Notes: generated by a model from the sequence alone, not told the origin. DNA of 25,136 nucleotides from Methanomicrobia archaeon (GCA_021159325.1 JAGGSA010000115.1:1-25136); one strand, 5' to 3'; shown: positions 1 through 19,910, counted from the first letter of the stretch. Program-made: numbers and translations.

Positions 1-52
1 TCCCCGCCCCAAACCCCGTGTCCAAACCCCACAACCGCACTTTTTTTCTCCC
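1..52. other. GC-rich C4/G4-tract element (possible 3' end of a structured RNA or G-quadruplex motif) followed by a T7 oligo-T
   Basis: Plus strand tCCCCgCCCCaaaCCCCgtgtccaaaCCCCacaaccgcac TTTTTTT. Four C4 runs give four G4 runs on the minus strand. GC content is far above the local background. The element is truncated by the window edge. Confidence 0.3.
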
Positions 53-6162: not shown

Positions 6163-6208
6163 GGTATCACTTTTCAGATGACATATTAAAAAATTTTCTA
6201 TTTTCTGA

Positions 6209-7177
6209 TCAAACCTTCTCCCCACAGTTTGGACAGTACTTACTACCAGCTGGTATCTCTGCTCCGCATTTCTTGCATTTTATCTTGGCTTTTGGCATGG
6301 AAAGTTTGTATCCACAGTTAGGACAGAATTTTGAGTTCCTGGGTACCTGATACCCGCAGTTCGGGCATACTACTGTTGCAACACCTGCTGCCTGTGGCGT
6401 CAGGAGATTTGATACTCCCTGCATTGCATAGGGTATGGCCATGAATCCAGCACCCATCGCAGCTCCGCCACCCTTTGTCTCTTTTATAGCCTCAGCAAAC
6501 TTCTCTGCTATCTCCTTTCCCACCAACTGTTCAGGTGTAACGCCTCTCTGCAGATAGAATAACTTGTTTTTATACTCATCGGGAATTGTTACTCCTTCTA
6601 TCTTCAGATCCACCATATCTATTCCGAATCTTTCAAAGTCTCCTCTCAGTCTTGTCTTTATAAACAGAGATGTCTCAGATGTCTGCTGATATACGTTGTA
6701 GGATGTCTGTTCAGCAAGATTGTCGATGAATTTTTCAATGATGAATGCTTCCACAAACTCCTTAACGTCCTCTTTGGTAAACTTGCCAAGATTTCCAACG
6801 ATCTCTATCACAAAAAGCTTGGGGTCAGAGATCTGTATATAGCATCTACCAAATGCTCCACACGGCACCATATCTCTCAGCATGACCTTCTGTTTTGTTC
6901 CAAACTTGAACTCTATCTTTGATGTGTTTACGAAGACAACTTCTGCTGTGAAAGGTGTCCTCCCCTGAAAAAATACCTTATATGCATTGAAAAGTAAAGG
7001 TATATTCAGAGTTGTCAGGGTATGTCTTCCGGGACCCAGAACGTCATAAGCCTTTCCATCTCTGAAGAATACAGCCTGCTGGTTTTCCCTCACTATCAGC
7101 TGATCTCCCAAGGTGATCTCTCCTCTGTATGCATGAATAAGATCATTATTCATGCCTCTCCAGTCTATAACTCTCAT
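6209..7177 (-). CDS. SPFH/band-7 (stomatin-prohibitin family, COG4260-like) protein with two C-terminal Zn-ribbons
   Basis: 322 aa. The N-terminal IDWRG...LGDQLIVRENQQAVFFRDGKAYDVLGPGRHTLTTLNIP matches the SPFH fold of COG4260-type proteins. The C-terminus has two CPxCG-x(9-10)-CPNCG ribbons. Its ATG at 7175-7177 is directly abutted by the upstream stop codon (TAAATG). Confidence 0.7.
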   Translation of the reverse strand: MRVIDWRGMNNDLIHAYRGEITLGDQLIVRENQQAVFFRDGKAYDVLGPGRHTLTTLNIPLLFNAYKVFFQGRTPFTAEVVFVNTSKIEFKFGTKQKVMLRDMVPCGAFGRCYIQISDPKLFVIEIVGNLGKFTKEDVKEFVEAFIIEKFIDNLAEQTSYNVYQQTSETSLFIKTRLRGDFERFGIDMVDLKIEGVTIPDEYKNKLFYLQRGVTPEQLVGKEIAEKFAEAIKETKGGGAAMGAGFMAIPYAMQGVSNLLTPQAAGVATVVCPNCGYQVPRNSKFCPNCGYKLSMPKAKIKCKKCGAEIPAGSKYCPNCGEKV

Positions 7178-7618
7178 TTATTCACCCATCATATATTTTT
7201 TTCTCTTTTCAAACTCCTCTTCCAGAATTCTCAGATTCTTCAGGACATCCTTCGAATCTTCTCTCTCCTTTATCTCCTCTATTTTTTTCAGGATTTTTTC
7301 ATCGTATTCATACAGTCTGTCCAGTTCTTTCTCGTCTATATGCTCAAGATCAAAAAAACCTGCATATCCATAATCTGCATGCTCTATCTTGTCTATCAGT
7401 TTCTGGAGCTGTTTTATTATCTCCTCACATTTTCTCAGTTCATCAATGTTTTCAATCCCGTCTTCCATATACTCAAAATCCTTTTTTATATACTTCAATT
7501 CATCACATATTTTTGTTCTCAACAACTTGTCGCTTTCTCTTCTCAACTCTTTCTGTTTGTATCCCCTGAATCCAGGTATTAACAACTCTATATCCTCCAA
7601 AATTCTATGTTTTTCCAT
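7178..7618 (-). CDS. Highly charged coiled-coil protein (hypothetical)
   Basis: Start chosen at ATG 7616-7618 (MEKHRILEDIELL...) because AGGTGAT lies 5 nt upstream. The longer track start at 7666 would overlap the rSAM gene. 146 aa, K/E-rich heptad-like sequence. Confidence 0.5.
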   Translation of the reverse strand: MEKHRILEDIELLIPGFRGYKQKELRRESDKLLRTKICDELKYIKKDFEYMEDGIENIDELRKCEEIIKQLQKLIDKIEHADYGYAGFFDLEHIDEKELDRLYEYDEKILKKIEEIKEREDSKDVLKNLRILEEEFEKRKKYMMGE

Positions 7619-7626
7619 AAGATCAC

Positions 7627-8880
7627 CTAATAACACTGCATCTCCAAGGGACATCCTGCTGTACATTCCCTGTTTTTATATTTTTCACATTCCTTACATT
7701 CCTCCGGCATGTACTCTCTATTTCTTATATATCTTGCCAGCTCTGAGTTCCATATATTCTGCCATGGATCCTTTAAAATATTTCCCATGGGCTCAAACCA
7801 GCTCTGACATGGGATAACATCCCCATTTGGTTCAACAGTGACATTGATCCTCGCTGCTGAACATACCTTCAATCCAAGTCCATACTCCACAGGATCTATC
7901 TCACATCTCTTTGTTGGAGTATACCAGACAAGCTCAAGATTAAGTTCATCGCATACCTCGATTATTTTTTCAAGGGTAGCTCTTAACTCATTGAGAGAAA
8001 GAGCATACTCCCTTTTTGCCTTGCCGGAGTAGATGATAGAGTTAAAAGCAAGTCTTTTTAGACCGAGATCACTCAAAAAATAAATGAATTTTTCAATATC
8101 TTTATAGTTATACTTCATCAGCGTTGTATTTGTCAGAGTAAATACAGAAGAGTCCACAGCTTTTTTTATTCCCTCTACCGTTTCCTTCCATGAATTTGCT
8201 CCCGTGATTTTATTATGCACATCTTCAAATCCTTCTATCGTGATCTGAAGATGATCAAGTTCCGCCTTTTCCAGATCATCCATATATTTTGATAGAAGTC
8301 TTCCGTTCGTGATAAGTCCTGTAACGAGGTTTTTGCTGTGAGCCACAAGATCCACAATATCCTCTCTTAAAAGAGGCTCTCCACCTGTGAAGATCACTGA
8401 GTTACTGAGATCAGATATGATATCGATGATCTTTTTCCATTCCTCTGTACTCAGTTCCTCTGTTTCCCTGGGGGATGCTGCATAACAGTGGATGCACTTA
8501 TTGTTGCATCTGTAAGTTACAGCAAGATCAAATCGATGGGGAGCTTTAAGCTCATAGTCCTTGGAGAACGGTGAGATACTCTCTATTCCGAGAGAGGAGA
8601 ATGGACATATATCCTTTGAAGATGCAAGAGCTATGATGCTGAAATAGATCTTTTCATAATCTTTCTCTATTTTTTCCTTGGATACTTTATACTTCTTTCT
8701 CATTATCTTTATTATCTCATTCTTCGTTTTTTCCTCCATTATATATTTCACATACTCTGTTGCAGTTTCATTGAGATAGAGGATATGTGCTCCATTTATA
8801 TTCAGAACAGAGAATCCTTTTTCCTCTCTCAGACTGAGTCTTATCTTTCCTTCCTCAAAAAACAGTGTTTTTCTGAACAT
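7627..8880 (-). CDS. Radical SAM / SPASM-domain peptide-maturase-like enzyme with N-terminal PqqD-like RRE domain
   Basis: Start at ATG 8878-8880 (MFRKTLFFEEGKIRL...), preceded by GGAGGAGGAGGA and overlapping the upstream stop (TGATG). The N-terminal ~85 aa (VLNINGAHILYLNETATEYVKYI...EIIKIMRKKYKVSKEKIEKDYEKIYFSII) has a PqqD/RRE-like pattern. CNNKCIHCY is the CxxxCxxC radical SAM cluster motif. The C-terminus carries a 7-Cys SPASM pattern (Cx13C ... CxxCx7CxxxC ... C). The track's longer N-terminus (MRMCIMCVC...) is a different-frame read-through of the repeat and is rejected. Confidence 0.8.
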   Translation of the reverse strand: MFRKTLFFEEGKIRLSLREEKGFSVLNINGAHILYLNETATEYVKYIMEEKTKNEIIKIMRKKYKVSKEKIEKDYEKIYFSIIALASSKDICPFSSLGIESISPFSKDYELKAPHRFDLAVTYRCNNKCIHCYAASPRETEELSTEEWKKIIDIISDLSNSVIFTGGEPLLREDIVDLVAHSKNLVTGLITNGRLLSKYMDDLEKAELDHLQITIEGFEDVHNKITGANSWKETVEGIKKAVDSSVFTLTNTTLMKYNYKDIEKFIYFLSDLGLKRLAFNSIIYSGKAKREYALSLNELRATLEKIIEVCDELNLELVWYTPTKRCEIDPVEYGLGLKVCSAARINVTVEPNGDVIPCQSWFEPMGNILKDPWQNIWNSELARYIRNREYMPEECKECEKYKNRECTAGCPLEMQCY

Positions 8881-10469
8881 CAGAATCCTCCTCCTCCAGC
8901 ACACGCACATGCACAGGAGACACATGCGCATGCACACGCACATGATACACATGCGCATACACAGGATTTTCCTGAGTGTGCTATCACTATTGGTGTTATT
9001 GCACCTGCAAGTTTTTTGGCACTTATTCCCGGGTTCTTTTCAATGCTCTTCTTGCCTTTGCCAAAGTTTTTTGCAAACTCCTTCCCCTTATAGCTTCCCT
9101 TTGGCAGATTGTACCATATCCACCATGATGTGGGTCTGAAAGTTGCGTCCACATCTTTGAATGTAGATCCAAACTTATCATCAAATTTATCATCTATCAT
9201 AAGCCATCCAGCCTTTTCACCGAAGAGCCTGTATCTCTCTTCTGGAGACACATTCTTCAGCTCTCCCCAGAACTTTTCTATCTTTTCTTTATAGTACTTC
9301 TCTGTATCTCTTCTGCAGTATCCTTTCATCTTTCTGTCCACATTCCTGCTCAGACTCTTTAAAACAATTTTAACTCCATCCACGTCCAAGGTACCATCCT
9401 CTTTAATCCCCTTCAGCAGGAACTGATTCTCATAATAAAATGTTTTTCCCTCAAGAACTACTTCACATCCACAGTATTCACAGTACTCTATCTCCGATTC
9501 TCCCTTCATGGGAGCGCCACAGTTGGGGCAGTGATATGTCTTCTGTTCTTCCCTTGTAGGTAAGATCTCGACCTTTACAGGATTCCACTGGAGGATTCTT
9601 ATCCTCCCCTTCTTCACAAGTCCGAATAAGATTATATTGATTATCTTGAACGGATGGGCTCCAAGAAGAACAGCTGCTTCAGCGTTGTCAAGATCCTTCC
9701 GCACTCCAAGAGACTCCATATGCATTGTGGGATCCTTATACATTTTTTTGGCAGCCTTCAATACCCTGTAAAGGGTATAGGCTACAACTATGAAGGTTAC
9801 AAGAATAAAAAGAATTCCGATTATAATTGATAGGTTATCACTCTCTGGCTTTTTTTCCAGAACATTCGTTACGTATCCCTCAGGAAAGGATATTCCACAG
9901 TCAAATCTTTCTCCTTTTGATAGAGTTCTTTCCCAGTATGCAAATGCTCTTCCGTTTTCTTCTCCAAAGTTATCCGCAGGGACAGGTTTACATCCAAGTT
10001 CCTCTTTTGATACTCCTTCAGGAGCTATAAACTTTACTCTTAAGATATTCACATCCTGATAATCCCAGTAAGCGGGTATAAACTCAACACCTACTCTCCC
10101 CTCCACATCTTTATAAACCATATCAGGAACTATAAGATGGATCTTTAATTTTGTGATATCTCCAGTATTGGCTATTTCTGGGAAGTATATCTTCAGTCTT
10201 TTTCCCTGTTTTTCAACATCAAGCATTGTATTTCCCGATGTTACAGAGTAATCGGTGATCTCATCCTTTGGGATTCCAAAATATATACCTCTCTGAGGCC
10301 CTGAAGTTGTTTCAATAGTTAAAAAATACCATATATCAAGCGAAGAATCATTCTGAACAGTTATTTCCACATTTTCCTCTTTTATAACGAACTCAGGTCC
10401 ATTGGCAAAAGAAATCCCAAGAAACAAAAAAATTATTCCTGCAAGAATAAGCCCATACCTCTTTTTCAT
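8880..10469 (-). CDS. Type-I membrane protein (DUF2207-like architecture: signal peptide, ~190-aa extracytoplasmic domain, TM, cytoplasmic Zn-ribbon) with C-terminal Cys-rich (CxC)n-GGGGF tail
   Basis: 529 aa. ATG 10467-10469 with GAGGAG 5 nt upstream. The N-terminal MKKRYGLILAGIIFLFLGISFANG is a signal peptide. A TM helix lies at ~res 213-236. The Zn ribbon is HCPNCG...CEYCGC. The last 27 aa are SCVCACVSCACACACVSCACACAGGGGF. The stop overlaps the rSAM ATG. Confidence 0.75.
   Translation of the reverse strand: MKKRYGLILAGIIFLFLGISFANGPEFVIKEENVEITVQNDSSLDIWYFLTIETTSGPQRGIYFGIPKDEITDYSVTSGNTMLDVEKQGKRLKIYFPEIANTGDITKLKIHLIVPDMVYKDVEGRVGVEFIPAYWDYQDVNILRVKFIAPEGVSKEELGCKPVPADNFGEENGRAFAYWERTLSKGERFDCGISFPEGYVTNVLEKKPESDNLSIIIGILFILVTFIVVAYTLYRVLKAAKKMYKDPTMHMESLGVRKDLDNAEAAVLLGAHPFKIINIILFGLVKKGRIRILQWNPVKVEILPTREEQKTYHCPNCGAPMKGESEIEYCEYCGCEVVLEGKTFYYENQFLLKGIKEDGTLDVDGVKIVLKSLSRNVDRKMKGYCRRDTEKYYKEKIEKFWGELKNVSPEERYRLFGEKAGWLMIDDKFDDKFGSTFKDVDATFRPTSWWIWYNLPKGSYKGKEFAKNFGKGKKSIEKNPGISAKKLAGAITPIVIAHSGKSCVCACVSCACACACVSCACACAGGGGF
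8899..8964. repeat. Imperfect alternating purine-pyrimidine (CA/CG/TG)n microsatellite, ~66 bp
   Basis: The sequence gcacacgcacatgcacaggagacacatgcgcatgcacacgcacatgatacacatgcgcataca is a GC-rich island in an AT-rich genome. It encodes the Cys-Ala/Val repeat tail on the minus strand and His-Ala repeats in a spurious plus-strand frame. Confidence 0.8.
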
Positions 10470-10531
10470 ATGATCTCCTCTTTTCTATTTTTAGAATCAA
10501 AGTTTTTAAAGTTTTCTATCGCAGTATAATT

Positions 10532-10945
10532 ATGAATGATCATTTTTTCATATACATAGGTTATGAACTTGCACATCTTAATGATCATCTTCCTGAAGAA
10601 AGGGTATCCTTAAAAGATCTTATAAAACAGGGAAAAACTGTGATAAAAACAAAGACAGGGGAGCATTATTTTGAAAAAAGTGATATTGATACTCTGAAGA
10701 GTTTTGTTCCAAGGGAATTCTGGAATAAAATATATCTGCCACTGATATTTCTCAGGAAAAAGGAAGTATATGAGTTTACAGGCAACATATATGAATGTTT
10801 CCTGATAAAGAAGATCCTGAATGGTGAGAGGTATACCTATGATGCGGTGATAGAAACAGATAAAAGATTGATCCTTTATACCCCGCAGATCATAGAGTTA
10901 AAGAAAAAGTTTAAGAGTATCTTTGTTATAGGTTTCAGCATATGA
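10532..10945 (+). CDS. Hypothetical protein (no recognisable family)
   Basis: 137-aa ORF with an ATG start, no obvious SD, and no motifs I recognise. It lies divergent from the minus-strand operon and is followed by a T-rich terminator region. Confidence 0.3.
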   Translation: MNDHFFIYIGYELAHLNDHLPEERVSLKDLIKQGKTVIKTKTGEHYFEKSDIDTLKSFVPREFWNKIYLPLIFLRKKEVYEFTGNIYECFLIKKILNGERYTYDAVIETDKRLILYTPQIIELKKKFKSIFVIGFSI

Positions 10946-13945: not shown

Positions 13946-15073
13946 ATGGATAGAACTGGAACCTCAGGAAGTGAAGAAAAGGGGGATTGTTATGTTGAAG
14001 TTACCCTTGATTCCGAAAATCTTGAGATCGATATTCAGAGTAAAGTCGAGAAACTCTATGGGAAGTCCATAAGAAAGACTGTGAAGGAAACATTGAAAAG
14101 ATTTGGTATAAAAAAAGGAGTGATAAGAGTAAGGGATAAAGGTGCCTATGATTTTGTCATATCTGCAAGATTAGAGGCAGCATTGTTAAAGGCTGGAGTA
14201 AAAATAGAGAATGATCGTATAGAGAGGGGAAAGGAGAGAGAGATAAAGTTGAGAAGAACAAGATTGTATCTTCCAGGAAACAATCCAAAGCTTCTCTTTG
14301 ATGGAAGTATATTTGACTGCGATTGTGTGATTCTGGATTTGGAGGATTCAGTTAAGATAGATGATAAAATAGATGCGAGAATCCTTGTGAGAAATGCTCT
14401 TTTTGAAATAAAGTACAGGCAGGAGAGGATGGTGAGGGTGAATCCACTTCCTCTTGGAGAAGAAGATTTAAAAGAGATACTGAAAACAGATGTTGATACT
14501 ATTTTAATCCCAAAGGTGGAAACAAAATTACAACTGGAGAAATTTACAGAAATAATTGAAAAATATGAATCTGAATATAAAAAAGATAAAAAAGTAAGAG
14601 TTATACCAATAATAGAGACAGCCTTGGGTCTTGAAAATGCTTTTGAGATAGCGTCTCATGAGAGAGTTGTGGCTATGACATTTGGGGCAGAGGATTACCT
14701 TGCTGATGTTGGTGGTGAGAGGAGCAATGAGGCTCTGTTTTATCTCAGATCAAGGATACTCAACGCAGCAAAGGCATGGAAAAAACAGGCTCTTGATACA
14801 GTATTCCCTAATGTTAACGATGAAAAAGGTTTAGAGGAGGAAACAAGACTTATCAAAGGCATGGGATATGACGGGAAGGGGATCATACATCCAAGACAGG
14901 CAGAGATAATTCATAGAGTCTTTACTCCGTCAGATGAGGAGTATAAAAAAGCAAAAAGAATTATAGAAGCATTTGAAAGATCGAAAGGAGTTGTTGCAAT
15001 AGATGGAAGGATGATAGACCTTCCTGTCGTTAAAAGAGCTCAAAAAATAGTTGATCTTTATGAGGGGAGATAA
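13946..15073 (+). CDS. citDE: Citrate lyase acyl-carrier (gamma, CitD) fused to citrate lyase beta subunit / citryl-CoA lyase (CitE, HpcH/HpaI aldolase fold)
   Basis: Residues 1-95 align with CitD (GTSGS...GD...IDIQS.VEK.YG..IR.TV...L..F......I.V.DKGA.DFVI.ARLEAAL), including a Ser in the GTSGS position equivalent to the prosthetic-group Ser. The remainder is CitE-like (LRRTRLYLPGNNPKLL...DCVILDLEDSV...). 375 aa. Confidence 0.8.
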   Translation: MDRTGTSGSEEKGDCYVEVTLDSENLEIDIQSKVEKLYGKSIRKTVKETLKRFGIKKGVIRVRDKGAYDFVISARLEAALLKAGVKIENDRIERGKEREIKLRRTRLYLPGNNPKLLFDGSIFDCDCVILDLEDSVKIDDKIDARILVRNALFEIKYRQERMVRVNPLPLGEEDLKEILKTDVDTILIPKVETKLQLEKFTEIIEKYESEYKKDKKVRVIPIIETALGLENAFEIASHERVVAMTFGAEDYLADVGGERSNEALFYLRSRILNAAKAWKKQALDTVFPNVNDEKGLEEETRLIKGMGYDGKGIIHPRQAEIIHRVFTPSDEEYKKAKRIIEAFERSKGVVAIDGRMIDLPVVKRAQKIVDLYEGR

Positions 15074-16606
15074 ATGATAAACGGCGTTGGAAGAGATATA
15101 CCGGATGAAATAAAGGGTTATGGAAAGGTCAGGCATTATAAAGGTGCTTTCGAGTATGTTCCAACAGGGAACAGATATGGACCTGTAAAAAAATTCATCA
15201 AACCAGGGGAAGACAAAATAATGACCCTAAGAAATGTTATTAAAAAATATGTAAAGGATGGAATGACAATATCCTTTCATCATGCCTTCAGGAATGGGGA
15301 TGTTCTTGTAAACAGAGTACTCGATATATGCAGTGATCTGGGAATAAAAAATCTCAGGCTCTTTCCCTCAGCGTTATTTCCCTGTCATGAACCTGTAATA
15401 GAGCATATTAAAAACGGAGTTGTAACAAGAATAGAGGGAAGCATGAATGGACCTGTGGGAGAGGCTGTTTCGCATGGTATTCTTCCTTACCCGGCAGTAC
15501 TGAGATCCCATGGAAATCGGTACAGAACGGTGGAGGCTGGAGAAGTACATATAGATGTTGCATTTATAGCAGCACCCACCTCTGATGAATACGGGAATGC
15601 AAATGGAATATATGGACCAACGCCCTGTGGCCCCTTAATATACTCAAAAGTTGATTCATTGTATGCGGATAAGGTCATAGTTGTTACAAATAATCTTGTT
15701 GATTATCCAGCATTCCCCATGACGATAAAACAGACAGATGTGGATCATGTTGTGGTGGAGGATAATATAGGTGACCCTAAGGGCATAGTTTCAGGGACAC
15801 TGAGAATAACAAGATCCCCCAGAAGATTGAAGATAGCAAGAACAGTAGTTGATGTCATAAGGGCATCAGGTGTCCTGAAAGATGGATTCAGCTTTCAGGC
15901 TGGGGCAGGAGGGATATCCTTAGCAGTTACAAAGTATCTTGGAGAGGCCATGGAGGAAGAGGATATAGTGGGAAGTTTTGGAATGGGAGGAAGCACAAGG
16001 TATCTTGTGGATATTCTGAAAAAAGGAAGACTCAGGTGTATTCTTGAGGGGCAGTGCTTTGATGAGGAGGCTATAAAATCTCTCAGAGAGAACCCAAATC
16101 ATGTAATAGTTGATCCGAGTTTCTATGCGAACTACAACTCAAGAGGAAATGCGGTGTACAAAGAGGATGTGGCATTTCTCGGTGCTACAGAGATAGATAC
16201 AAAATTCAATGTGAATGTCAATACACACTCAGATGGTCTTCTTCTCCATGGAATAGGGGGTCATCAGGATGTTGCCTCAGGGGCAAGGATCTGCATAATC
16301 ACAGCACCGTTACTCAGAGATAGAATACCTGTTATAGTAAAGGATGTTACAACAGTCACAACTCCGGGGGAGACAGTGGATGTAGTTGTCACGGATGTTG
16401 GTGTTGCTGTTAACCCGAGGAGAAAAGATCTTTTAGAAAAACTTAAAGCTGCAGATATAGAGGTAAGAGATATAAAGGAACTTCAGGAAGAAGCTTATGA
16501 TATAGCAGGAGAACCTGAAAAACCAGAAACAAAAGATAGAATAATAGCGGTGATACAGTACAGGGATGGAAGTGTAATAGATGTGGTAAAGGAGGTAAAG
16601 GAATGA
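15074..16606 (+). CDS. citF: Citrate lyase alpha subunit (citrate CoA-transferase, CitF)
   Basis: 510 aa. The N-terminal NGVGRDIPDEIKGYGKV...RNVIKKYVKDGMTISFHHAFRNGD is typical of CitF. The ATG directly follows the citDE stop (TAAATG). Confidence 0.85.
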   Translation: MINGVGRDIPDEIKGYGKVRHYKGAFEYVPTGNRYGPVKKFIKPGEDKIMTLRNVIKKYVKDGMTISFHHAFRNGDVLVNRVLDICSDLGIKNLRLFPSALFPCHEPVIEHIKNGVVTRIEGSMNGPVGEAVSHGILPYPAVLRSHGNRYRTVEAGEVHIDVAFIAAPTSDEYGNANGIYGPTPCGPLIYSKVDSLYADKVIVVTNNLVDYPAFPMTIKQTDVDHVVVEDNIGDPKGIVSGTLRITRSPRRLKIARTVVDVIRASGVLKDGFSFQAGAGGISLAVTKYLGEAMEEEDIVGSFGMGGSTRYLVDILKKGRLRCILEGQCFDEEAIKSLRENPNHVIVDPSFYANYNSRGNAVYKEDVAFLGATEIDTKFNVNVNTHSDGLLLHGIGGHQDVASGARICIITAPLLRDRIPVIVKDVTTVTTPGETVDVVVTDVGVAVNPRRKDLLEKLKAADIEVRDIKELQEEAYDIAGEPEKPETKDRIIAVIQYRDGSVIDVVKEVKE

Positions 16607-17115
16607 GAATAAATGAGTTATTTCCATATATTGGTAAAATAGAGAGTGAATCTCTGAGAAATAAAACAGAAAAAGTGATAGAGTACGCATTAAGGGGATG
16701 GAATGAAAAAGATATAAAAAACATACCGTTCACACTCCTGGTAGAGACAGAGATTAATCTGATAGATCACATAAATACAGTTACAGAACTCAGTTACAGC
16801 ATTGGACTAATCATGAAGAAAAGGGGATTTAAAATAAATATGGATTATCTTATAGCTGGAGCTATTTTACACGATATAGGAAAATTCATAGAATATGAAA
16901 AAAAAGGAGATAAAATTGTACAGAGTTATCCTGGGAAACTTGTTAGACATCCTGTTTCCGGAGCTGGTATTGCAATGAGATTTGATCTTCCTGTGGAAAT
17001 AGTGAATATCATAGCAGCGCATTCAAAAGAGGGTGAGTTTGTAAAAAGAACTCCTGAGGCTATAATAGTACATCACTGTGATTTTATTCATTTTGAAAAT
17101 GTAAAAGCATTATGA
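16603..17115 (+). CDS. HD-domain metal-dependent phosphohydrolase (function unknown)
   Basis: 170 aa. An H...HD motif ([10 protein letters not shown]) and downstream His/Asp (HHCDF). ATGA overlap with the citF stop, and AGGAGGT 8 nt upstream. Confidence 0.6.
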
Positions 17116-19910
17116 AAAGGATAAAGATTGTAGGAGCAAGAGAACACAACTTGAAGAATATAAACTTAGAACTTCCGAGAGATAAACTGATAGTTATCAC
17201 AGGAGTCTCAGGATCAGGTAAGTCCTCTCTGGCATTTGATACGATCTATGCAGAAGGTCAGAGGAGGTACGTTGAATCTTTATCTGCCTATGCAAGACAG
17301 TTTCTCGGACAGATGAAAAAGCCGGACGTTGAGTATATAGAGGGCCTCTCACCGGCTATATCAATAGAACAGAAGGGCATATCAAAAAATCCAAGATCCA
17401 CAGTGGGAACTGTTACAGAGATATATGATTACCTCAGACTTCTTTTTGCAAGAATAGGTATACCCCACTGTCCTCTCTGTGGAAAGGAGATAAGACAGCA
17501 GACATCCCAACAGATAATAGAGAATGTGATGAACCTCAATGGAAAAATAACTATATTTGCGCCAATAGCACGGGGAAAAAAAGGAGAATATAAAAAAGAG
17601 TTTGAAACTCTGAGGAGAGAGGGATTTGGAAAGGTGAGAGTTGATGGAGAGATAATAGATCTTGAAAATGATATATCTCTTGATAAGAAAAAGAAACATA
17701 ACATCGAGGTTTTAATAGACAGAATAAACCTTGATAAGTCAAAAGACAAAACAAGGATAGCAGATGCAGTTGAACTTGCTTTGAAAATAGGAGATGGGCT
17801 TGTGCTTGTATCATCTGATAGGGAGTATCTCTACAGTGAAAAGTTTGCATGTCCTGACTGTGGTATCAGTTTTGGTGAGATAGAACCAAGAATATTCTCT
17901 TTTAACTCCCCATTTGGTGCCTGTCCTGAGTGTAAGGGACTGGGATATAAGATTGAAATTGATCCTGATCTGGTCATTCCCGATAGATCCCTCTCCATTA
18001 TAGAAGGCGCTATAGCTCCTTGGGGAAATAATATGGATACATATTATATGAAGATGCTCAGAACAGTGGTGGAACATTACGGATATACTGTGGAGACACC
18101 CATTGAGGATATGGATGAGAAGGTTATAGATATAATACTCTATGGAACAAAAGAGAAGATAAAGTTTTCTTTTAAAGGAGAATCATCTCAGTGGTCATAT
18201 GAGGGGGGATTTGAAGGAGTGATCAGAAATCTTGAGAGGAGATTCAGGGAAACTTCCTCTGAGTATATAAGGAACGAAATAGGAAAATATATGAATGAAA
18301 AAGCATGTTCTTTCTGTAATGGAAAACGACTTAAAAAAGAAAGCCTGGCAGTTACCATAAATGGAAAAAATATAATAGAACTTACGGAGATGTCAATAAA
18401 GAAATTGTATAGATTTTTCAACAATTTAAAACTAACTGAAAGAGAAAAAATCATATCAAAGCAGATCTTGAAAGAGATAAAGAATAGACTGGAGTTTTTG
18501 ATCTCTGTGGGACTGGATTATCTGACACTCGATAGAAAATCTGCTACACTTTCTGGCGGGGAAGCTGAGAGGATAAGGCTTGCCACACAGATAGGTTCGA
18601 GTCTTGTAGGTGTTCTATATATTCTTGATGAGCCGTCCATAGGGTTGCATCAGAGAGATAATACCCGACTGATCCAGACCCTGAAGAAACTGAGAGATTT
18701 GGGAAATACCGTGATTGTTATAGAGCATGATGAAAATATGATAAGAAATGCTGATCATATTGTTGATATGGGACCAGGTGCTGGAGAACATGGAGGAAGA
18801 GTTGTTGCTCAGGGCAACCTGGAAGAAGTAATGAATAACTCCGAATCTCTTACAGGAAAGTATCTAAAAGGTGTTTTGAAGATAGAAGTTCCAAAAAAAA
18901 GAAGAAAATCCAATAAATTTTTAAAAATAACAGGTGTGAGACATAATAATCTAAAAAATATAACTGTTGAAATTCCTCTGGGGGTTTTTGTCTGTATTAC
19001 AGGTGTATCTGGATCCGGGAAATCCTCCCTTATAAACGATACACTGTACAGAGCGATAGCCCAGAAACTTTACAGAGCCAAGGAAAAACCAGGAAGATAT
19101 GAGAATATAATTGGGCTTGAGAACATAGATAAGGTGGTGGTCATAGATCAGTCTCCCATAGGAAGAACTCCAAGATCCAATCCTGCCACATATACAGGTG
19201 TTTTCACGCCTATCAGAGAGTTATTTTCCATGCTTCCAGAATCAAAAATAAGGGGATATTCCCCTGGAAGATTCAGTTTCAATGTAAAAGGAGGAAGATG
19301 CGATGCATGTGAGGGGCATGGACTGATAAAAATAGAGATGCACTTCCTTCCTGATGTTTATGTACCCTGTGAGGTATGTAAGGGAAAAAGATTCAATAAG
19401 GAGACACTTGAGGTGAAGTACAAGGGTAAAAACATAGCAGATGTTCTTGATATGAGTGTTGAGGAGGCTTTGAATTTCTTTGAGAATATCCCGAGGATAA
19501 AGAGAATTCTTCAGACGCTTTACGATGTTGGCATGGGATATATAAAACTTGGACAGTCAGCTACCACTCTTTCTGGAGGCGAAGCCCAGAGAGTAAAACT
19601 TGCAAAGGAACTGAGTAAGAGAGCCACAGGAAGAACGTTATATATTCTTGATGAGCCAACTACAGGGTTGCACTTTGATGATATAAAGAAGCTTCTGAAT
19701 GTCCTCAATAGACTGGTAGATAGGGGAAATACAGTTCTTGTGATAGAACATAATCTTGATGTTATAAAAAATGCAGATTATATAATAGATTTAGGCCCTG
19801 AGGGAGGAGATAAGGGAGGATATGTCGTGGCCAAAGGAACTCCTGAAGATATAGTAAAGAAGAATACATATACTGGTCAGTTTCTGGAAAAAGTCTTGAT
19901 TAGCTCATGA
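17112..19910 (+). CDS. uvrA: Excinuclease ABC subunit A (UvrA)
   Basis: 932 aa. Two ABC ATPase modules ([10 protein letters not shown] twice, with LSGGE signature motifs) and Zn-finger CxxC pairs. ATGA overlap with the HD gene stop. Confidence 0.95.

Follow-up and report, generated by a model that had tools for sequence, protein, structure and literature searches.

We describe two adjacent genes which, in our best reading, encode a radical S-adenosylmethionine (SAM)/SPASM maturase of the type that acts on peptides made by the ribosome and modified after translation (RiPPs), together with its cysteine-rich substrate. They lie in a stretch of 25,136 nucleotides (nt) from a Methanomicrobia archaeon (GCA_021159325.1, JAGGSA010000115.1:1-25136), referred to below as the window. 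Four genes, here called g1 to g4, follow one another on its minus strand. They encode a membrane protein (g1), a radical SAM enzyme (g2), a soluble helical protein (g3) and an SPFH-domain protein (g4). It is the g1-g2 pair, not the four-gene operon, that we consider the notable object. On balance we favour the view that two independent two-gene modules adjoin each other in one Methanofastidiosia clade, and that the first of them, g1-g2 (module A), is a substrate-maturase pair; g3-g4 is module B. Coordinates are collected in Table 1, and loci in other genomes and contigs are cited by our labels (L001 and so on).

The C-terminal tail of g1

The C-terminus of g1 reads SCVCACVSCACACACVSCACACAGGGGF: CVCA comes first, then CVSCACACA twice, and GGGGF last. 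A preliminary description of the window missed this tail, which is the most unusual feature of the interval. The same tail is present in all full-length homologues from our first protein search (36 of 36), the remaining sequence being 38-50% identical, and it is the most conserved part of g1. At the DNA level the tail is an imperfect tandem repeat with a 27-nt period and 2.2 copies (Tandem Repeats Finder, TRF). Over the 22 codons of the tail, the window and four relatives differ by 8-13 synonymous changes but by only 1-4 non-synonymous ones. This excess of synonymous changes indicates strong purifying selection on the peptide and not a microsatellite accident.

The distribution of the tail was surveyed by a degenerate-codon scan for its 14-residue core, CACACACVSCACAC, using one genome per GTDB species. 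The scan gave at least 119 loci among the matches listed, and all counts on core-bearing genome loci below rest on these. The core (42 nt) occurs in 114 distinct DNA versions, which draw on every synonymous codon, both serine codon families included. Most of the loci belong to Bathyarchaeia. Other carriers are labelled as other Thermoproteota, Theionarchaea, Methanofastidiosia, Asgard archaea and one metagenome-assembled genome (MAG) of Methanocella, and there are bacterial MAGs as well (Allofournierella, Bacillota and others). In every locus the core stands at or near the C-terminus of an open reading frame (ORF) of about 540-600 amino acids (aa); the homology of this ORF to g1 persists when the tail is left out.

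A profile of the g1 family was also searched against 1.84 billion representatives of clusters at 50% identity. It matched 808 proteins at E<=1e-3, 150 of them at E<=1e-30; in distant homologues the match is split around the internal Zn-ribbon segment of g1. Among the best 147 of the 808 matches, 111 have Cys/Ala tails: 24 carry the archaeal core and 87 carry variants, most commonly ...GGGCACACACAGCACACAGGGR. Seven more, scored as having none (4-5 Cys in the last 45 residues), have short Cys/Ala tails ending in CACACACACAGGGR or CACASCACACAGGGR, and the remaining tail-less matches are mostly fragments. The common denominator of the tails is two (CA)3 blocks and a two-residue linker, which make up CxxCACACA units. 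One named carrier of the commonest variant, ...CACACACAGCACACAGGGR, is a Thermoanaerobaculia MAG; a second tail of this type comes from a contig whose other genes include LigA and YkuD of bacterial type.

A different arrangement is seen in Allofournierella MAGs (Oscillospiraceae; L083, L014, L095, L099, L108). There the radical SAM gene lies upstream of the carrier and overlaps it, the Cys/Ala block (GGGCACACACVSCACACACAGGGR) is internal and followed by an extension of about 35 residues, and the carrier has a weak DUF2207 match.

The g2 enzyme and its pairing with g1

The g2 protein matches the Pfam families Radical_SAM (5.2e-27), SPASM (1.1e-12) and PqqD (2.9e-6), all above their cut-offs. 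Its N-terminal RiPP recognition element (RRE) is PqqD-like (aa 25-77; PF05402, 28.0 bits against a cut-off of 23.4), and the model of AlbA aligns to g2 from aa 28. The CX3CX2C motif reads CNNKCIHC (C125/C129/C132), and seven further cysteines lie towards the C-terminus, at positions 340, 358, 395, 398, 406, 410 and 416. The closest solved structures are PqqE, SkfB and CteB, and the PGAP annotation reads 'PqqD family peptide modification chaperone'. It reaches no curated NCBIfam radical SAM equivalog: all 25 of the matches listed are far below cut-off, the best being NirJ2 (121 bits against 500).

Of 113 informative loci, 105 have a g2 orthologue next to g1. In 92 it lies directly downstream on the same strand (phmmer E ~1e-90 to 1e-130), in four downstream after a gap, and in nine next to g1 in another orientation; six further loci are uninformative. 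The g1 stop and g2 start overlap or nearly overlap in archaea and also in bacteria, namely in the Thermoanaerobaculia MAG and the contig with bacterial-type genes mentioned above. No protease, transporter or immunity gene recurs near g1-g2 in the loci listed. Nor did we find a paper on the g1-g2 pair in our search, outside which subscription-only literature lay.

Some loci have additional genes beside the pair. On a contig with bacterial-type genes (L214), two more genes come after g1-g2, one for another radical SAM protein (392 aa) and one for a SAM-dependent methyltransferase (249 aa), so some lineages may add tailoring steps. A protein of about 416 aa, in which an N-terminal HAD-hydrolase is fused to a polytopic membrane domain, lies downstream of g2 in L070 and 38 other Bathyarchaeia loci; it could reflect lineage synteny or be an additional component. 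We also considered an anti-phage defence system and rejected it: PADLOC gives only generic similarity of the g2 radical SAM core to pVip, and g1, g3 and g4 have no match.

Architecture of g1 and a possible third component

According to both the AlphaFold2 model and hydropathy, g1 passes the membrane once: a signal/anchor helix lies at its N-terminus (aa 2-19), and a transmembrane (TM) helix spans aa 212-243. In the model (predicted local distance difference test, pLDDT, 78.6) a beta-sandwich ectodomain occupies aa 27-196, and a winged-helix-like region, a Zn ribbon and a helical domain lie past the TM helix. The last 35 residues are disordered, with pLDDT below 40 in the tail. The sequence KAAKKMYK follows the TM helix, and for this reason the tail is predicted to be cytoplasmic, on the same side as g2. 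No Pfam or NCBIfam family matches g1. In Foldseek its ectodomain resembles ribophorin I/Ost1 (E 1.9e-9) and also the N-domain of M1 peptidases.

In 69 of the genome loci a protein of about 110-130 aa is encoded just upstream of g1. It combines two TM helices with a Zn ribbon at the C-terminus, which ends in TEEPKW, and its conservation spans Bathyarchaeia, an Asgard MAG and a bacterial contig. The lineage of the window has no separate gene of this kind; a Zn ribbon is internal to g1 instead. We surveyed 88 full-length g1 carriers for the two states. A separate ribbon gene with no internal ribbon was found in 63, an internal ribbon with no separate gene in seven, neither in 18 and both in none. 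Since the two states are mutually exclusive, the domain-fusion argument suggests that the small Zn-ribbon protein and g1 work together.

What might happen to the tail

What follows on the action of g2, the type of chemistry and the physiological role is what we infer from these observations. The g1 protein would be held in the membrane by its single TM helix, with an Ost1/DUF2207-like ectodomain outside the cell and a cytoplasmic part ending in the unstructured CxxCACACA tail. The RRE of g2 may dock on the region of g1 just before the tail, and its radical chemistry would then modify the Cys/Ala core in place. To our knowledge, almost all characterised RRE-radical SAM-SPASM enzymes with Cys-rich substrates make thioether cross-links (sactipeptides, ranthipeptides, QhpC). 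The likeliest chemistry would be the formation of cross-links from Cys sulfur to carbon, as in sactipeptides and ranthipeptides; a hairpin linked across its strands would fit the pattern of two (CA)3 blocks joined by a short linker. Since the loci listed show no recurring protease or exporter, we expect the product to stay on g1 as a rigid thiol- or metal-active appendage and not to be released as a peptide. The modified tail could then be a metal- or redox-active element of a receptor-like membrane protein. In most lineages the small Zn-ribbon protein would be the third part of module A; here its ribbon would be fused into g1.

A broader suggestion can be put forward tentatively. The g1 protein, g2 and the small Zn-ribbon protein may form an ancient, so far undescribed protein-tail maturation system that bacteria share with archaea (Methanofastidiosia, Bathyarchaeia, other Thermoproteota, Asgard). 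In it the radical SAM/SPASM enzyme would turn the (CxxCACACA)n tail into a covalently cross-linked, thiol-derived metal or redox site, which would serve as a cofactor or sensor at the cytoplasmic face. If correct, this would be a post-translational modification and a function without a characterised counterpart.

Several points weigh against the substrate-maturase reading as such. The g1 model is only moderately confident (predicted template modelling score, pTM, 0.47). The invariance of the core in the at least 119 loci arises by construction, the sample having been selected by the motif; the independent evidence for conservation of the tail is that from the homologues of the first search and the profile matches. 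The latter show variants of the tail, with AG or AS linkers and shorter blocks. Eight of the 113 informative loci, from Thermoproteota and Asgard, have no g2 in the available flank. Adjacency alone is no proof that g2 acts on g1, and the tail could bind metal or Fe-S clusters without being modified.

This last possibility deserves attention as an explanation in its own right. The tail may be an unmodified metal- or Fe-S-binding appendage, or a redox or thiol buffer, and g2 may act on something else or need the tail only as a partner for electrons or clusters. Four thiolates are available in each CxxCACACA unit, and the tail has CxC and CxxC motifs, which are typical of metallothioneins and CopY-type metal sites (PMC12648655). 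Moreover, the g2 core has its top scores against the tetrapyrrole enzymes NirJ2 and AhbC as well as PqqE. On the other hand, the PqqD-type RRE of g2, above its Pfam cut-off, is characteristic of peptide-binding enzymes, metal binding is not expected to fix the intervening Ala, Val and Ser, and the adjacency of g1 and g2 is near-universal among the matches listed. We regard an unmodified tail as unlikely.

Far less probable is a tail that serves as the precursor of a released RiPP product, cut from g1 after modification. The enzyme is indeed of RiPP type, and SCIFF and sactipeptides share with the tail a core rich in Cys. However, the recurring protease, transporter or immunity gene is missing from the loci listed, the core is near-invariant across phyla, unlike those of antimicrobial RiPPs, and the carrier is a conserved 530-aa membrane protein with other conserved domains. 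We give as little credit to the idea that the tail is a second, C-terminal anchor of small residues embedded in the membrane. Its mean Kyte-Doolittle hydropathy (2.24 over aa 499-526) and the basic or His residues ahead of it in archaeal members would agree with this, but the commonest variants have 15-17 Cys/Ala residues, too short for a membrane-spanning helix, with poly-Gly flanks and a GGGR end. AlphaFold2 predicts no helix there, and the radical SAM partner would be left unexplained. Finally, a functionless translation of a TGTGCA-type microsatellite, which the imperfect 6-, 12- and 27-nt periodicity of the DNA and the repetitive pseudo-peptides in its other frames might suggest, is refuted by the codon analysis: synonymous changes predominate in the tail, one 14-aa core is written in 114 ways, and the motif is always C-terminal in a homologous protein among the matches listed.

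If g2 does modify the tail, the two genes represent a large RiPP-type maturation family that acts on a full-length membrane protein (808 representative clusters, at least 119 species genomes). Cases in which radical SAM/SPASM enzymes build a permanent feature of a protein are few, and this would be a further one. Archaeal phyla keep the tail motif unchanged, and some bacteria differ from them in its two-residue linker only. Such conservation speaks for a housekeeping rather than an antibiotic role. A tail of about 30 residues is also a concrete and easily expressed test substrate. Public sources list some g1 homologues as 'DUF2207 domain-containing' or as 'OST subunit 1', and the pair provides a first handle on proteins with these labels or that of 'hypothetical'.

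The g3-g4 pair

The g3 protein is a soluble helical-bundle protein, modelled as five helices (pLDDT 87.5), with the invariant motifs IPGF(R/K)GYKxKExRRExD and H..YGYAGFFD. Its family comprises 229 matches at E <= 0.001, with source names of Methanofastidiosia, Theionarchaea, Bathyarchaeia, Thermoprotei and one 'Candidatus Binatus' MAG. The preliminary description had proposed comparing this coiled-coil protein with PspA. A profile comparison with hhalign gives probabilities of 1.7% (Escherichia coli PspA) and 0.5% (Bacillus subtilis), and g3 has neither sequence-profile nor fold similarity to the helical hairpin of PspA, Vipp1 or ESCRT-III.

The description of g4 as an SPFH protein with a C-terminal Zn ribbon holds. 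We class it as a cytosolic SPFH protein of the YdjI/SamI type (COG4260-like). Its Band_7_1 domain (PF13421, E 1.1e-37) covers aa 16-207; a linker rich in Gly and Ala connects it to a pair of double Zn ribbons (aa 268-322; Pfam DZR / Zn_Ribbon_1). Hydropathy reveals no hydrophobic (TM) segment, and a sequence search against the PDB gave no match. In BLASTP g4 matches B. subtilis YdjI from end to end, ribbon included (E 2e-17 over 313 aa).

The g4 gene directly follows g3 in all 77 informative loci out of 80 metagenome loci, and also in L009-L011. In 20 of the 80 a Zn-ribbon protein of about 250 aa is encoded directly upstream of g3-g4 (for example in L011 and L158); it is homologous to YdjG of B. 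subtilis (BLASTP E 3e-8, ~250 residues aligned) and is seen in some Bathyarchaeia. Hence some archaea have the order YdjG-like, g3, YdjI-like. Module B would then be an archaeal counterpart of the YdjI/SamI scaffold, with g3 standing where bacteria have PspA. The strict g3-g4 pairing defines an archaeal version of this scaffold with a new partner in place of PspA, and bears on how SPFH scaffolds are used where PspA is not near these genes.

One module or two

The preliminary description took the four genes for a single envelope-stress or microdomain module with a radical SAM maturase inserted into it. Their tight coupling is as described; a single conserved module is not what we find, the pairs occurring mostly apart. 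In L005, L006, L007 and about 95% of the genome loci g1 and g2 occur without g3 and g4, which are near them in about six loci. Conversely, g3 and g4 occur without g1 and g2 in 78 of the 80 metagenome loci, and the two that have all four belong to the window's own clade. The radical SAM gene is therefore a fixed partner of g1 and not an insertion into an SPFH module. The order g1-g2-g3-g4 is kept in close relatives of the window (L001-L004, L008, L040, L106, L132, L133), so that the arrangement is no assembly accident. This conservation of operon order, which had been put forward as a check, extends only to relatives of at least 71% identity (L008). In that clade, the nearest members of which carry the label Candidatus Methanofastidiosia, the four genes are probably co-transcribed.

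Could the four genes nevertheless be one membrane-stress or microdomain system? In such a system g4 and g3 would assemble on the cytoplasmic part of g1, as YdjI does on YdjG/YdjH, and g2 would mature g1. The translational coupling in the window agrees with this, and the pairs are neighbours in other arrangements too, more often than random placement suggests: two Bathyarchaeia have g3-g4, a Zn-ribbon gene and g1-g2 (L025, L127), and one locus is convergent (L026). Three arrangements in different lineages hint at a loose association, and a weak functional link between the pairs is possible. The g1 protein has a YdjG-type Zn ribbon and ends in GGGGF where YdjG has MGGGF, and the YdjG homologue found before g3-g4 in a quarter of loci (20 of 80) points the same way. 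Against this stand the rarity of the four-gene combination from either side, the strict conservation of each pair by itself, and the lack of PspA here, to which g3 bears no likeness. We find a single system doubtful, and two modules that adjoin in one clade remain our preferred reading.

Organization of the locus

Reading the sequence confirms the gene layout given earlier. The TGA stop of g1 overlaps the ATG of g2 by 1 nt (TGATG). The TAG stop of g2 is followed by an 8-nt gap, GTGATCTT, which is part of AGGTGAT and precedes the ATG of g3, and the TAA of g3 abuts the ATG of g4 (TAAATG). The enolase gene starts 46 nt past the stop of g4. The first and last proteins of the four carry CPNCG-type ribbons, as had been noted: g1 has CPNCG...CEYCG, and g4 has three CPNCG and one CKKCG. 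In public records g1 and g3 are each a 'hypothetical protein' and g4 is an 'SPFH domain-containing protein'.

Longer versions of g2 (443 aa) and g3 (162 aa) in a mechanical ORF list are artefacts, as the orthologues begin at the stop-overlapping ATG. The false extension of g2 is the repeat of the g1 tail read in another frame, and the repeat also gives rise to a spurious ORF on the plus strand. An automatic gene call in L006 (444 aa, against 417-419 aa in orthologues) begins inside the g1 tail and apparently contains the same extension.

The region upstream of g1 contains a candidate promoter and a candidate ribosome-binding site, and a divergent gene lies on its other side. The oligo-T stretch in the spacer between g4 and enolase could be an archaeal terminator, a TATA box of enolase, or both. 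In the 71%-identical relative L008, a 388-aa protein with an N-terminal double zinc ribbon, and not enolase, comes after g4, which places enolase outside the conserved cluster. Within g2, close to its 3' end, a TATA-like element might be what is left of the promoter of a once-independent g3-g4, or might have arisen by chance in AT-rich coding sequence. A scan with promoter and terminator models found fewer sites than in shuffled sequence; the models are bacterial and thus uninformative for an archaeon. The PspA_IM30 domain is not found among the window genes in the Pfam lists for identical contigs.

Elsewhere in the window there is a co-directional block of genes whose stops and starts overlap or abut. 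Domain names for it, taken from the Pfam lists of identical contigs, are given in Table 1. A short tandem repeat near the first position may be an assembly-end feature.

Table 1. Features of the window and of the other loci discussed; positions are those of the window unless a locus label is given
Feature	Position	Strand	Remarks
g1	8880-10469	minus	529 aa; ORF read from sequence
g1 internal Zn ribbon	9468-9530	minus	CPNCGAP...CEYCG
g1 C-terminal tail, putative modification site	8883-8963	minus	aa 503-529; CVCA-(CVSCACACA)x2-GGGGF
Periodic DNA of the tail	8899-8963		6-, 12-, 27-nt periods, imperfect (TRF)
GGGGF end of g1	8883-8897
g2	7627-8880	minus	417 aa; ORF read from sequence
g3	7178-7618	minus	146 aa; ORF read from sequence
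g4	6209-7177	minus	322 aa; ORF read from sequence
False extension of g2	8880-8958	minus	MRMCIMCVCM... (MRMCIMCVCMRMC)
Spurious ORF from tail repeat	8785-9093	plus	His/Ala-rich peptide HAHAQETHAHAHAHDTHAHTQ
g1 upstream intergenic region	10470-10531	minus	read from sequence
TATA-like TTTAAAAA	10503-10510	minus	candidate promoter of g1
GAGGAG	10475-10480	minus	candidate ribosome-binding site of g1
Divergent DUF61 gene	10532-10945
TATA-like AAATATAAAAA	7690-7705	minus	inside g2 3' end, ~55 nt upstream of g3 start
g4-enolase spacer	6163-6208	minus	46 nt; read from sequence
TTTTTTAATAT	6183-6193	minus	candidate oligo-T terminator and/or enolase TATA box
Enolase ATG	6162
Co-directional gene block	13946-19910	plus	citrate-lyase-like acyl carrier protein (ACP)/HpcH_HpaI fusion, CitF, HD-domain protein, 932-aa UvrA-like ABC protein
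CCCCGTCCCCAAA tandem repeat	2-30		2.3 copies
TEEPKW protein	L102:3239-3820	plus
TEEPKW protein	L127:1701-2087	minus
TEEPKW protein	L214:4625-4981	plus
TEEPKW protein	L059:5146-5553	minus
~250-aa Zn-ribbon protein upstream of g3-g4	L011:5184-5936	plus
~250-aa Zn-ribbon protein upstream of g3-g4	L158:7130-7882	plus
388-aa double zinc ribbon protein after g4	L008:11362-12528	plus
Allofournierella radical SAM gene and carrier	L083:1220-3747
Second radical SAM gene and methyltransferase	L214:8059-9983	plus
HAD-hydrolase/membrane protein	L070:4381-5799	plus

Comparison with known systems

The g3-g4 pair is best compared with PspA-YdjG-YdjH-YdjI (SamGHI) of B. subtilis, a membrane-stress module (PMC8581546; bioRxiv 10.64898/2026.02.06.704340). 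This neighbourhood, to which the preliminary description had pointed, exists as described there: in the B. subtilis locus (L213; PMC8581546) the order is PspA, YdjG (Zn_Ribbon_TF), YdjH (TPM domain) and YdjI (Band_7_1 and Zn ribbon). Our YdjG query has 100% and 99% identity to B. subtilis proteins, and its termini match published primers (PMC8581546). The resemblance is real for g4, a YdjI homologue with Band_7_1, a C-terminal Zn ribbon, no TM segment and almost the same length (322 aa against 323 aa). It does not extend to the remaining genes. The match of g1 to YdjG is confined to a 40-residue Zn ribbon (E 4e-5) and the GGGF end, so g1 is rejected as a full YdjG homologue; g1 and g3 are likewise rejected as homologues of the TPM-domain protein YdjH (hhalign probability <=0.2%, with g3 at 0.2%). 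The archaeal loci have neither PspA nor a TPM-domain YdjH, and the invariant partner of the scaffold is g3, an unrelated helical protein. According to the published primers, YdjG ends in MGGGF and YdjH in GAGAVF (PMC8581546). With the GGGGF of g1 these are Gly-rich ends with an aromatic residue, and such C-termini may be a shared feature of these membrane proteins.

The ectodomain and TM helix of g1 superpose on Ost1/ribophorin I. Nothing ties g1 to a role in glycosylation, and DUF2207 (PF09972) gives only sub-threshold matches, in distant members of the family (E 0.0069 and 0.078).

For the g1-g2 pair, the nearest enzymes belong to the sactipeptide and ranthipeptide systems (AlbA/subtilosin, SkfB, CteB/SCIFF, PapB). 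These share with g2 an RRE, a CX3CX2C core and SPASM with two auxiliary clusters, and in them too a Cys-rich substrate, putative in our case, is encoded directly beside the enzyme. The SCIFF substrate, like the g1 tail, is highly conserved and not hypervariable. The differences are equally clear. Substrates of these systems have 40-50 aa, while the putative substrate here consists of the ~27 C-terminal residues of a membrane protein of 530 aa, and g1-g2 has no associated protease or exporter. The scores of g2 are below the curated cut-offs (AlbA 75 against 850 bits, StsB 87 against 625, PapB 67 against 340), and the CxxCACACA repeat fits no described core. The signature of SCIFF, a precursor of ~45 aa with six Cys, is not that of g1, which has no NCBIfam or Pfam match and a length of 529 aa. 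The ACGX-repeat system with rSAM_ACGX (TIGR04340), reported largely from methanogens, likewise combines a short Cys-containing repeat with a radical SAM/SPASM enzyme; its repeat unit and carrier are different, and the score of g2, 73 bits, is below the cut-off of 400.

The closest published concept is that of TIGR04222 ('near_uncomplex') proteins, membrane proteins with Cys-rich C-terminal tails proposed as protein substrates of MNIO enzymes (PMC12452194). As with g1, an enzyme of RiPP type encoded nearby is presumed to act on a membrane protein whose C-terminus is of low complexity and contains Cys. The partner of g1 is radical SAM/SPASM and not MNIO: an adjacent MNIO (DUF692) gene was not found at the loci examined. 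TIGR04222 tails are variable in Ser, Gly and Cys and predicted to be periplasmic, whereas the g1 tail has a fixed sequence and is predicted to be cytoplasmic. The g1 protein of the window does not match TIGR04222, and 12 of 33 family members match it weakly in the juxtamembrane region, below the 43-bit cut-off (best E 2.5e-4).

A precedent for the fate that we propose for the tail is found in QhpC/QhpD. In this system a radical SAM/SPASM maturase introduces Cys thioethers into a protein that is kept as a functional subunit, the gamma subunit of quinohemoprotein amine dehydrogenase. In sequence g1 is unrelated to QhpC, it is a membrane protein, and no dehydrogenase genes accompany it (the comparison was made via the NCBIfam scan only). 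Yet in our proposal, as in QhpC/QhpD, the protein modified by a radical SAM/SPASM enzyme would be retained and not released as a peptide.

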